Assembly (NCBI GenBank): GCA_040357565.1
Contig: JBDODJ010000056.1
DNA length: 64,000 nucleotides
Origin: Cercozoa sp. M6MM
Taxonomy: Eukaryota; Protista; Endomyxa: Ascetosporea
Reading direction: 5' to 3' (one strand)
The notes below the pieces were generated by a model. That model did not search any database, had not been told where the DNA came from, and was given only the letters and a program-made list of their open reading frames with translations. A program made the translations under genes and the position numbers. This document shows, in pieces, positions 8,747 through 47,015 of this stretch (its first letter is position 1; every line of letters begins with the position of its first letter).

Positions 8747-11005
8747 ATGTATTCGGTAGATCCCTTGATCATTCAGCAGCATTTTTGCGTGGCCACCGAT
8801 CAAAAATCTACTCTTTTTTATGGCCGACAGGCATATCTTGGACGCCACGCACAGCGCCGTCTCAAGGGCACTTTGATCGTGGACAACCCTTTCACCGGTA
8901 ATTCTGGTGCGATGTGTGCTGGTGCTTGTACATGTAGCGACGTTGTGCATCTGTTCCTGAAGGTGGTGTCGCTTGCAAGGTTGCCTTACCCTCTGACGAA
9001 GGATGTGTCAGGTATCATATTACCTCCTTTCCCTTTACCCCTTTACCTCCTTTGCCCCTTACCCCTCCTCGGGTGTCTGCAGTGCCGTGCAAGACTCGCA
9101 CCGCGCGTTTAAGTCATGGCGCACCGTACCCTTGCAGGACAGAATGGCTCTCGTGGACCGATTCATCGACAGACTGTCGGCTAACACGGACTCGATCGCC
9201 AGCGACGTCTCTCGAATGATGGGCAAGCCGTATCACCACGCACAGGGCGAGGTGAAAAATGCCGTCGCGCGTGCCAAGTATCTGCTCTCCGTGGCGCAAA
9301 CTTCCCTCGCCGACCAGGTGCTGTTTAATACCTCAAGAATCTCGACTATAGGACTACCCCAACACAGGTGATAGCCCAGAGTAAGACAGGCGTGCGCACG
9401 ATACGAAAAGAGCCGGTCGGTGTCGTTGCAGTGTTGTCGCCTTGGAACTACCCACTACTGTGCACTGTGAATGTCCTGGTTCCTGCCATCCTTGCTGGTA
9501 CAGTACGATCCCTGTGTCCGTTGGTGCACATAGTGTTTGAGCCACTCAGGCAACGCCGTTCTCGTGAAGCACAGCGAGCGATCGCCGCTCGTGGCGGAGC
9601 ACTTTGCCACTGCGTTCAAGCAAGCGGGCGCGCCGGACTTCCTGGTGCAACCACTGCACGCGACGCAAGAGCAACTGCACGCCAAGGTGCTCACGGATCC
9701 GCTTGTTGGCTACGTTGCCTTTACTGGTTCGGTCCAAGGTACAGCAGGAATAGGTTGACGCAGCAGGGGTGTCACAAACATGACATGTGAACAGGAGGTC
9801 GTGCTGTCTACGAAACAGTGGCCTCGCGACACCCGTTCTTCTGCGACGTGGGACTCGAACTCGGTGGAAACGGTAGCTCTGTCTAATTTGTCGTTATTCG
9901 GACACTTTCAGTGAATCGTTCTAACTGTACTGTATTTGCAGACGCGGCCTACGTCGCTTGTGATGCGAACGTCAAGGAGGCCGCTGCCGGCATCGCCGAA
10001 GGCGGTTTCTTCAACGCAGGCCAGTCCTGCTGCGCTGTCGAACGTGTCTTTGCACACGCATCAGTGTGCCTCTATTTTACTTAACCCCTCCTTTTATTTC
10101 CTCAATGAGATACACTATTTGCATGCAGCTACGACGAGTTGCTTCGCGAGCTGCAGTTACACGCGGAGGCGCAGGTGCTGGGCGACCCTCTGGAAGCTTC
10201 GACTACGATGGGCCCTCTAGCGCAGCCTCATCGTACGTGACCCTGCTCTCCCTTGCGTATCAATGTCATATGTGTAGACGCCGAGCACGTGCAAGCCCAC
10301 GTCGATGATGCCGTTAAGAAAGGTGCACGTGTCTTGTGCGGCGGCCATGCGCGCGGACGTTTTTTTGAACCCACCGTTCTTGCTGGTACAGGTGGACCTT
10401 ACCTGTGTATCTGTACAATGATGTCTGTACAGATGCGACGCCGGAGATGCGTGTCATGCGCGAGGAGACCTTCGGGCCGCTGCTACCAGTGATGCGTGTC
10501 TCGTGTTACGCCGATGCGCTTGAGCTGGTACCTTGTGCCAACTGGTACACTGGTTCCTCTCCTCCCTCTTTATTGATCGGTGAACACAATAGATCAACGA
10601 TTGCACACTCGGCCTTACTGCGTCAATTTGGACGGAGGGTACATCCTCCCAGTAGTCACAGTTAATTTATGATTTCTAGTTTGTGTAGATGCGAAAAAGG
10701 CGGACAACTTCGCGCGCGATGTTTCCGTCGGCACTGTCGTACATTTTGTTTTACTTCACTCAAGAGCTATGGCATTCTCTAACTGTGCAGTTTCAAAACG
10801 GATGCGATAACCCGCACCCGTCGCTGCCGTGGAGTGGTACTTCGCTCGCTAAGGTTTGGTTTGAGTTTGTCACCCTGATATGTCACCTGGTGCAGGACGA
10901 CGCGAGTCCGGCAAGGGCCTGTCCCTCAGTCACCTGGTGTTCGATTCTGTGACTGCGCCCAAGTCACTCAACCTCCGACGCTCCCTGATGTCAACACCCG
11001 AATAG
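8747..11005 (+). CDS. Aldehyde dehydrogenase, 14 introns, probable mitochondrial transit peptide
   Basis: Spliced: MYS|AYLGRHAQRRLKGTLIVDNPFTG, EPVGVVAVLSPWNYP, GNAVLVKHSE, FTGS, ELGGND, FFNAGQSCCAVER (catalytic Cys), EETFGP, PWSG|RRESGKG; TAG at 11003-11005. Confidence 0.92.
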
Positions 11006-11034
11006 GGATGGAAGATGATGACGTCAGCTGACAG

Positions 11035-12230
11035 TGTCATCTCAACACAATCTACAATATCGGTCTACGATCACCAGCACTTCCTATACAGCGACCACCA
11101 TGCTGTTATGGTCACAGTGGAACGAGCAGTGCGTAAACCAAATACGTCATACGGAGGAAGAACTACAAAAAGATAGATCTCCGCCCCAAAAGTACACAGA
11201 ACATGAAACTTATTAAGGAACTGAAAAACAAAAATGAAGATGCATCTGGACTCGAAGCACTCCTCATAAACATGAGAAAACAGCTCAGACAAAGCCTTCG
11301 CATTGATAAGCAAGCTCTATGGCATGAGAGAGTGGCCAGACTGAACGCACACACAACAATCGGGGAGACCACTCGACTACTGAGAAACATCAAAGACACC
11401 CCCGTAAGGAGCAGTAACCACTGCACACAGTGTCGGATACGCCGATGACTCATACGTCATAGTAAGGACAACAAAGAGATCAGACACGCAGGAAGCTTGT
11501 AAGCGCCTCTTGGACACAGCCACCACCTGGGCAAAACGCAACGGCATGGAATTCGCACCCACAAAGACTCAGTTCATCCAAATGGGAAAGAAGACAATCA
11601 GAGACTTCAAAATCAGAATGAAAACACTGTCCCACGATAACTAGAGAGAAGACATCGAGCAAGTAGACAAAATGAGAATTCTAGGTCTCCTCATAGACAG
11701 AAACCTGTCGTACGAGGCACACGCAGAGCAACTACACCACAAAATCACTCGGAGGGTCAACACACTGAAAATACTGATATACACAAGGTTTGGACTCACA
11801 CAATACCTAGCGGTACAGATATACAAAGCGTGGATACTGTCATGCGCTCGATACGGCATCGCGCTCTGGTGGCACAAAATTGGCAGCACAAAATGGAGGA
11901 GAAAACTCGAAATAACACAACGCACCGCCCTGAGGATATGCATGAGACTACCCACGAGCTCTCCTAATGAGGCAGTGTACACCATCACCGACACAGGAAC
12001 AATCGGAGAGATGGCAGAACGGGCAGAAGCGACAGAACTAGACGCCTCTCTACTTGCAACCCGCTACCTGCACCAACCATGAAGTCGACTTCGGTGTCTG
12101 GGAACGTCAAAAAGGAGTTTTATGGTTCTACTCAAAGCGGGCGGTAGCCACGGCCAGGCTCTTGTGACCCACCCCGAACTGGCGCAGGGGAACTACAAAG
12201 TTGGTTTCCTAGAGACTCAACTAACTAACT
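11035..12230 (+). mobile_element. Non-LTR retrotransposon (APE/RT LINE) copy 1, 5'-truncated and internally deleted
   Basis: Endonuclease SDH motif (11090-11098), GYADD RT motif, near identity to 49356-51179, frameshifts, ends CTCAACTAACTAACT. Confidence 0.88.
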
Positions 12231-12302
12231 ACTGTTTGGTTCGACCGACGTCCTTGGCGGCACGGAAGTCACCGCCAGTAGGGAAACCGTTTTGAAGTTC
12301 TC

Positions 12303-12326
12303 GATTGGCACCTTATTCTGCCAATC
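12303..12326. promoter_or_regulatory. Inverted pair of CCAAT-like boxes upstream of cystinosin
   Basis: GATTGGCA-ccttattc-TGCCAATC about 210 bp before the ATG. Confidence 0.3.
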
Positions 12327-45522: not shown

Positions 45523-45599
<77 letters not shown>

Positions 45600-45609
45600 N
45601 NNNNNNNNN

Positions 45610-45657
<48 letters not shown>

Positions 45658-47015
45658 CCATAGACTCTGGAGGACCTGTCACAAGGCCGATACAAGCGTC
45701 AGATGGTCGACTCAACGAAATTGAAGGAGCGTGGTCTCGCTCCCGGCACTGGCACTGGTGCATACCCTTATACTCCTCTAGTCGTTTACACCCATATCCA
45801 TACTCCAATACCCCGATTCTTATTCTCTAGTCATCGATGCCGAGCACATCCGCTTCAGCGACGTGCCGATTGTCACGCCAAACGGCGACATCCTAGTACC
45901 TTTTTGCCTGTTCCACTCCAGCTCAATCAAGGCACGTGTGTGTGTATGTGTGTGTGTGTATGTGTGTGTGTGTGTGTTCAACAGGTGAACGAGCTCAACT
46001 TGACGATTGAGAGGCGCGAGAACCTCTTCATTCGCGGACCCAACGGCTGTGGCAAGTCGTCGCTCTTCCGGTATAATCCCCTACACTCACACCTGGCACA
46101 AGCATGGTGTGTGTGTGTACGTACAGCACGCTGTCGCAGCTGTGGCCGCAGTTCGGTGGTGTACTGGAACGACCCACCGGCAGTAGCATCTTCTACATCC
46201 CGCAGCAGCCCGTATACCCCTTCTATAATCGAATGGACACGCGCATGTCCTCACAGTATCTTTGCTGTTTGTGCAGTACCTGCCGCTGGGTACACTGCGC
46301 GACCAGGTGATCTACCCGGACACGGTGGCTACGATGAAGTGCTCCGACGATGAGCTGCTGCAGCTGCTCAAGATCGCCAAACTTGAGTATTTGGTAGTCT
46401 TGGACACACACGCACACCCTACCCCACGCATTCAACATGACTGCTTGTAATTGTGAGTAGGTCCCTCGCGAGGGTGGCTGGGATGCCGTTGCATCGTGGC
46501 AGGTGCGCCTATCCCAATGTGCACACTTTTGTTGTTATCTTTTACCCAAACAGGACCGTCTGAGTGGCGGAGAGAAACAACGCATCGCAATGGCTCGTTT
46601 GGTAGTGTCTTTACCCCCCTCTGTGATTTCCCTCGATACCTCGGTCCCGTAGTTCTACCACAAGCCGCACTTTGCGATCCTGGACGAGTGCACCAGCGCC
46701 GTGTCTGTCGACGTTGAGCACAACCTGGTACGAGCCACCCTGTTTGAAATGCTTGGCAGTGCTATGTGTATGCGAGTTGCAGTACTCGACGGCGAGGGAA
46801 ATGGGCATGTCGCTTATCACGATCTCGCACCGTCCGTCGCTGTGGAAGTACCACGAGCGTGTGCTCGACATGTACCGCCCTTTTAATTTAAAACCCTCGG
46901 TCTTTGCTTACTGTTGTGCCTTATTTTGTGACTACACAGGGACGGCCGTGGCGGCTGGAAAGTCTCCAAGATGGTGCTCCCCGAAGGCTACGGCAAGGAC
47001 GCTTCCGTCCCGTAG
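43393..47015 (+). CDS. Peroxisomal ABC half-transporter, ABCD family (PMP70-like), ~24 introns
   Basis: [43 protein letters not shown], Walker [62 protein letters not shown]. Confidence 0.96.

Follow-up and report, generated by a model that had tools for sequence, protein, structure and literature searches.

The 64,000-nucleotide stretch analyzed here (the window) lies on contig JBDODJ010000056.1 of Cercozoa sp. M6MM, a cultured marine amoeba also named Lemnamoeba sinaloensis (Rhizaria, Apofilosa), for which a chromosome-level assembly and transcript data have been published. The window carries multi-intron genes on both strands, and our subject is the 5' splice site (donor) of their introns, which most often opens with GTAC. 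Eleven genes match public proteins of this organism letter for letter (an ABCD exon, for one, is 100% identical to its protein), with three isoforms in addition, and one distant MAK16 was retrieved as well. Mapping the proteins exactly onto the window gave 186 introns with 185 distinct donors; a kinesin gene, POP5, a hydroxyisobutyrate-dehydrogenase-like gene and others were left uncounted. All 186 introns begin with GT and end with AG, and they are short (minimum 45, median 61 nucleotides [nt], quartiles 56-69). The organism is reported to have 13 introns per gene, with a mean length of 82 nt and 99.5% GT/AG ends (PMC13746701), and its public gene models are described as built with transcript-trained funannotate (PMC11069148).

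Across the 185 donors, the exon side and the third intron base are biased (-2A in 73, 39%; -1G in 123, 66%; +3A in 150, 81%, with G in 30 and a pyrimidine in 5, so that +3 is a purine in 180, or 97%). At +4 we find C in 109 donors (59%), T in 37 (20%), G in 24 and A in just 15 (8%); at +5, C in 60, G in 49 (26%), A in 42 and T in 34; +6 is T in 38%. The most frequent starts are GTAC (85), GTAT (31), GTAG (23), GTGC (21) and GTAA (11), and GTRAG occurs in 4 of 185. These counts exclude the first intron of P0004, whose donor near 30707 reads T/GTGAGT (a slash marks the exon-intron boundary) and goes against a picture of sparse GTRAG; if it is added, and GTAAGC is put in place of a doubtful donor at 47912, the figure becomes 6 of 186.

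The background chosen matters for +5 and not for +4. Set against 4402 unused GTR sites of the window (which contain some true donors of the uncounted genes), the 180 GTR donors are enriched for +4C (106, versus 33% of unused sites, p 2e-12) and depleted of +4A (14, versus 18%, p 2e-4), while +5G stands at the level of the unused sites (45, versus 25%, p 0.93). Expected numbers tell the same story for +4C (109 versus 62, p 2e-12) and +4A (15 versus 34, p 9e-5), and U is depleted at +4 as well (37 versus 61 expected from the intronic background, p 1.5e-4; 20% versus 30% in unused GTR sites). C is enriched even among the non-A bases (106 of 166, p 1e-9). For +5G, however, there is an excess over the G content of neighboring intron bases (16.4%, p 5e-4), with 49 observed versus 28 expected from intronic dinucleotides. 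The pattern is homogeneous across the eleven genes (p 0.66 for +4C, 0.60 for +5G), and the two strands agree.

An earlier note on this DNA had claimed a non-standard GTRC donor code from the 38 introns of the ALDH and ABCD genes (14 and 24, spanning 8756 to 46939 in the P0003 and P0001 mappings). Our recount reproduced its tally exactly (+3 A29 G7 C1 T1; +4 C26 G5 T5 A2; +5 A14 T9 C8 G7), the other 147 donors, from nine genes, give +4 C83 T32 G19 A13 with 42 +5G, and the code is real. Its further statement that neither +4A nor +5G is conserved was right about +4A, which is avoided; +5G, in contrast, is conditional and not absent. Likewise, “chance level” describes +5G against the window-wide GTR level and not against neighboring intron G, the excess lying mostly in donors without +3A.

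Table 1. Genes with counted introns, and other features of the window.
Feature	Position	Strand	Introns and donors	Mapping and support
ALDH gene	8747..11005	+	14 GT-AG introns, donors 8756-10837; +4C 10, +5G 1	P0003, exact mapping; Aldedh; 12/14 junctions best under bacterial ALDH profile
ABCD-type transporter gene	43393..47015	+	24 GT-AG introns, donors 43444-46872; +4C 16, +5G 6	P0001, exact mapping; ABC_membrane_2 + ABC_tran; 22/24 junctions best by >1 bit
CHD-type remodeller gene (chromo, SNF2, helicase C, PHD)	51282..59923 (intron span)	-	65 introns; +4C 40, +5G 20	P0005, isoform P0013
MAK16 gene	15224..16809 (intron span)	-	12 introns; +4C 8, +5G 3	P0010; first 7 introns recovered by blind spliced alignment
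PQ-loop gene	12603..14414 (intron span)	+	9 introns; +4C 4, +5G 2	P0002
Senescence-domain gene	17190..19265 (intron span)	+	19 introns; +4C 8, +4A 5, +5G 8; least typical gene	P0011
Gene without Pfam match	4595..5358 (intron span)	+	3 introns	P0009
Gene without Pfam match	30888..32398	+	10 introns counted	P0004, mapped from residue 4
Glutathione S-transferase gene	47314..48900 (intron span)	+	12 introns; donor 47912 doubtful	P0008
Ubiquitin C-terminal hydrolase gene	60235..61064 (intron span)	+	7 introns	P0007, P0015
Gene without Pfam match	62071..63810 (intron span)	+	10 donors, of which one has a pair of acceptors 3 nt apart	P0006, P0014
Hydroxyisobutyrate-dehydrogenase-like gene	28380-29850	-	multi-intron, uncounted	weak NAD_binding_11 match
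Repeat in three pieces	11020-12240, 32520-32800, 49350-51180			shared 3' end
TG/CA microsatellites (examples)	13630-13832, 45510-45656, 56310-56432, 58343-58513			

Misplaced junctions, or a pattern imposed by the gene predictor, could in principle produce such a code, as public gene models from transcript-trained prediction underlie the majority of the 185 donors and the glutathione S-transferase donor looks doubtful. All in-frame alternative GT/GC-AG pairs within 36 nt were scored against profiles built without this organism: an ALDH profile from 79 of 80 bacterial loci and an ABCD profile from 72 of 150 homologues, picked by length. The annotated donor was best in every ALDH intron except 1 and 2 and, by more than 1 bit, in every ABCD intron except 1 and 16, these four being unanchored; the assertion that the exon edges are fixed by protein conservation thus stands for 34 of the 38 introns. 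No alternative GTRNG donor beat the annotated one in either gene. In MAK16, the first 7 of 12 junctions win clearly (the remaining 5 are unanchored), and exactly those seven were recovered when the locus was spliced-aligned blind to a profile built from other organisms. The 41 homology-anchored donors still show +4 C28, T8, G4 and A1, with +5G in 8, so that an artefact is extremely improbable, and the GTAC-type donor code is real and probably genome-wide in L. sinaloensis.

The bases of the donor do not vary independently. +3A trades off with the exon end (AG/ donors 61%, all others 89%, p 4e-5), as U1/U5 pairing would predict, and the usual trade-off of -1G with +5G is missing (+5G 26% versus 27%, p 0.86). 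+5G follows the +3 base: it is present in 32 of the 150 +3A donors (21%; p 0.05 against the intronic expectation), in 13 of 30 with +3G (43%) and in 4 of 5 with a pyrimidine there (trend p 2.5e-4). Since +5G in this way rescues an unfavorable +3, the C opposite +5 in U1 and U6 may be intact and act as a “back-up.” +4C is no commoner where the exon end is weak (18 of 40 donors lacking both -2A and -1G, 45%, versus 91 of 145, 63%; p 0.048) and is the same in AG/ donors and others (59% versus 59%); among +3G donors it is found in 21 of 30, and +4G in none.

Across five species, published U5/U6 score correlations lie between rho -0.17, the human value, and -0.38 (bioRxiv 2022.04.05.487178). Here, the U5 score correlates with +3 (rho -0.25, p 6e-4) and gives rho +0.12 (p 0.10) against +4 and +5, so that the value for +3 to +5 together (rho -0.10, p 0.19) comes entirely from +3; at n=185 the human level of -0.17 is still compatible with it. 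Neither AG//GT nor GTRAG describes 131 of the 185 donors, and among these 185 we found neither a substantial GURAG class nor anticorrelated U5 and U6 scores, the two marks of a two-class donor system.

How much of the donor is needed to find it was asked in a leave-one-gene-out choice, with some 5 candidate GT sites per donor in a range of 30 nt and with length scored given the true acceptor. Positions -2, -1 and +3 picked 162 of 185 donors and, combined with length, 174; length alone picked 103; adding +4 or +5 to the exon bases, +3 and length gave 170-172 and hence no gain. Counting matches to CAG/GTACGT picked 139 donors and to CAG/GTAAGT 120, a gap that follows from the +4C excess itself. 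The idea, also raised in the earlier note, that donors are defined by another route fits these results, and splicing here likely takes its information from the exon end, from +3 and from a fixed intron length rather than from the usual U6 pairing.

These are ordinary GT-AG introns: removing them restores the conserved frame, and their exon-side and +3 biases are those of U1/U5 pairing, as in U2-type introns. The GTAC-type code is therefore a variant of the U2-type splice-site code and no new kind of intron. A U12-type identity was rejected (three donors start GTATCC, none of which continues TT, and the two introns that hold CCTTRAY lack such a donor), as was an Introner or other nonconventional origin: the intron ends show no complementarity beyond chance (204 position pairs, highest z 2.3), and the 5' ends of the two most similar introns agree at no more than 15 of 20 bases, which speaks against Introner-type shared sequence. 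Nor do the two ends covary as a pairing of GTRC with RYAG would require.

None of 15 branch-point motifs tried rose above dinucleotide shuffles (highest z 1.5); weak branch points are described as usual in intron-rich genomes (PMC2483917, PMC4471660). The acceptors of the eleven genes have no clear polypyrimidine tract and read RYAG: 160 of 182 YAG sites have a purine at -4, versus 64% of unused YAG (p 1e-12), and only 5% have C there. From +5 to +22 the introns hold about 29% C and 17% G, versus about 20% C and 23% G in their 3' part, and their first 20 bases are 67% pyrimidine. This C-rich, G-poor 5' third may serve to bind a helper protein of the TIA-1/Nam8 type.

Several individual sites deserve mention. 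The doubtful glutathione S-transferase donor reads GTTGAC and gives a 46-nt intron, while an in-frame GTAAGC 15 nt upstream (window 47897-47912) would give one of 61 nt, so that the model may be wrong or the site alternative. In the remodeller gene, donor 58745 (AAG/GTACAA, minus strand) is used, and a perfect AAG/GTGAGT 21 nt downstream, unused in the model, would give a 35-nt intron, under the observed 45-nt minimum. Tandem acceptors (TAGCAG) at 63108 and 63111 are used one per isoform. The C-terminus of the remodeller, moreover, holds NSD-like PHD fingers, reflecting either an unusual order or two genes fused in the model, and the PQ-loop gene we take to be cystinosin-like. Compared with bacterial enzymes, most of them alphaproteobacterial, the ALDH shows about 40% identity.

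The repeat in three pieces is likely a LINE-type (long interspersed element) sequence, to judge from broken reverse-transcriptase-like frames in two of the pieces (weak RVT_1 match, E 3e-4); a metagenome scan for it returned 0 matches. Many of the long TG/CA microsatellites are intronic, with TG on the sense strand, and several coincide with N gaps. Their abundance in L. sinaloensis has already been published (PMC13746701).

How does this code compare with known systems? With intron-rich U2-type systems (AG//GU, //GURAG) it shares the GT-AG ends, the -1G, -2A and +3R biases, the YAG acceptor and, over the 15 motifs tried, the lack of a strong branch motif, and it differs in the scarcity of GURAG, in a +4A below background, in the missing -1G/+5G trade-off and in the many donors that fall in neither class. 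A preference for +4C is itself already known from Mastigamoeba balamuthi, the Mamiellales (Micromonas) and Thecamonas trahens, the last two reported with a standard U1 (bioRxiv 2022.06.08.495308). The donors of Mamiellales, however, read GYGCGY, with +3G in place of the +3A of Cercozoa sp. M6MM, and carry +5G at 70-92%, a share that drops to 47-69% in mating-type regions (S2 Table of PMC13298755), versus 26% here; M. balamuthi, also an intron-rich amoeba, has +3G and +5G in its reported consensus, versus +3A and a free +5. Yeasts lacking METTL16 (GUAUGU) avoid +4A too, but are described as preferring +4U, keeping +5G and being intron-poor (PMC10581693), whereas Cercozoa sp. M6MM, with its 13 introns per gene, shows a depleted +4U and a weak +5G. 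The nearest functional likeness is to Caenorhabditis elegans mutants (snrp-27 M141T and snu-66 H765), in which sites with GT and +3A only are favored and +4A/+5G sites are disfavored (PMC11098459); there the reported shift affects tens of sites and the available text notes no preference for +4C, and here the code is wild-type and apparently genome-wide.

Closer to home, Plasmodiophora brassicae (Rhizaria) is also described with short introns of narrow length (median 55 nt, SD 7) and a weak branch consensus (PMC2483917, PMC4471660). The accessible parts of three further papers (PMC12730881, PMC10245619, PMC6053224) hold no usable rhizarian donor frequencies, and those of the papers on Cercozoa sp. 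M6MM (PMC13746701, PMC11069148) give terminal dinucleotides only. We found no description of a GTAC code combined with weak +5G in the literature covered, which left out most subscription journals. P. brassicae is, however, said to show many transitions at +5; if so, the weak +5G would be an older and wider rhizarian trait and less new here. A metagenome scan for MAK16 gave 79 loci, none of them close (best-segment identity 41-62%), and spliced alignment of 24 of these yielded some 30 putative introns, a number too small to build a logo for comparison; two of the loci (L137 and L150, from a eukaryote) have introns of 30-36 nt that begin with GTAC or GTAG.

Which change in the splicing machinery could underlie this code? 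The earlier note had looked to altered U1/U6 small nuclear RNAs (snRNAs), and a compensatory change (U1 ACGUAC, or U6 G43) that puts +4C in a Watson-Crick pair would account for a +4C excess seen against every background tried, for the +4C and absent +4G of +3G donors and for the better match to CAG/GTACGT, itself a consequence of that excess; M. balamuthi is reported to pair a U1 candidate ACGUAC with GUGCGC donors (bioRxiv 2022.06.08.495308). But +4C fails to compensate a weak exon end (the difference runs in the wrong direction), and a G opposite +4 should take U by wobble, yet U is depleted; both points argue against a G facing +4. Micromonas and Thecamonas manage the same preference with a standard U1, and the fall in +5G would be left unexplained. 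The dependence pattern, with +5G rescuing poor +3 and +4C indifferent to the exon, does not support the proposal, and we regard it as unlikely. Rather unlikely, too, is an unchanged machinery in which short, length-constrained introns let +4 and +5 drift under a weak +4C bias from context or an intron-binding protein. The performance of length, alone and with -2, -1 and +3, in picking donors is in keeping with this, as are the presence of C after GTA at 35% of the unused sites and the pyrimidine-rich intron start; +5G has been called not prominent in Arabidopsis (PMC11170887), and falls under relaxed selection in the algal mating-type regions (PMC13298755, S2 Table). Drift, however, would not be expected to take +4A below background and +4C so far above it, since a standard U1 and U6 should keep +4A at or above background, and 26% +5G is well under even the eroded algal regions. 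As for an altered U6 modification, also proposed in the earlier note, loss of METTL16 would leave an unmethylated U6 A43 that rejects +4A, and the avoidance of +4A and near-disappearance of GURAG do resemble METTL16 mutants (PMC11732430, bioRxiv 2022.04.05.487178). Such loss is reported to give +4U in mutants and across yeasts (PMC10581693), and the depletion of +4U here argues against simple loss, which we consider very improbable; the +4U preference that it predicts did not appear.

The reading we favor, tentatively and at somewhat less than even chances, is that U1 and U6 are standard and that U6 docking is relaxed, a helper of the SNRNP27K/SNU66 type at U6 A43 having probably been lost or altered. 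The exon end and GUA would be held by U1 and U5 loop 1, definition across an intron of fixed length would supply the remaining donor information, and the U6 ACAGA box would add no more than a C:G pair at +5 as a back-up. A methylated A43 that disfavors U, with no helper to stabilize A, would leave C and G at +4; the depletion of +4U is compatible with m6A (N6-methyladenosine) present on U6 (compare PMC10581693). We prefer this to a rewritten U1 or U6 because of the likeness to worm snrp-27 M141T, which is reported to promote sites without consensus beyond GT except +3A and to reduce sites with AGT at +4 to +6 (PMC11098459, PMC11732430). In its favor, too, two of the three known +4C lineages have a standard U1, and across 240 fungal and outgroup genomes the ACAGA of U6 does not vary. 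Every step of this mechanism is inferred, and the excess of C over G at +4 is beyond the model.

Several points weigh against relaxed docking with standard snRNAs. The preference for C among non-A bases at +4 is not accounted for; the +3 pyrimidine class behind the +5G rescue comprises only 5 donors, one of them doubtful; and the likeness to the worm is an analogy between the shifted sites of one mutant and a genome-wide consensus. SNRP-27 is reported to be essential in worms (PMC11098459), and in yeasts loss of SNRNP27K or a change at M141 accompanies +4U, not +4C (PMC10581693). The 64-kb window holds no snRNA at Rfam gathering scores, with only repeat-driven sub-threshold matches at E<=1, and, as a weak test, the Gene Ontology loss tables for the organism contain no small nuclear ribonucleoprotein, snRNA or splice-site terms (PMC11069148 supplement). 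No METTL16 rows appear in the supplements of PMC11069148 and PMC13746701, nor SNRNP27 or LUC7 rows in that of PMC11069148; orthogroups annotated as “U1 snRNA binding” and “3'-splice site binding” are among the organism's gains and duplications, non-significant after correction (PMC11069148 supplement 1). A bolder version seems improbable to us: an intron-rich eukaryote would have rewritten the supposedly invariant U6 ACAGAGA box (with A43 replaced by G, say, to read +4C), or would have given up the U6 read-out of +4 and +5 altogether, some 13 introns per gene then running on exon end, +3 and length only.

In the current model, intron-rich genomes split their donors into U5-strong and U6-strong classes, and the identity of +4 is tied to METTL16 and SNRNP27K. 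The evidence behind that model comes from animals, a plant and yeasts, in which +4 switches from A to U or back. With 13 introns per gene, A and U both avoided at +4 and a U6-strong class close to absent, the present genome is a natural and cheap test of the U5/U6 and METTL16/SNRNP27K models. The GTAC donor code is also relevant to gene prediction in Rhizaria, and Cercozoa sp. M6MM offers a test case for the co-evolution of splice sites and spliceosome outside animals, plants and fungi.

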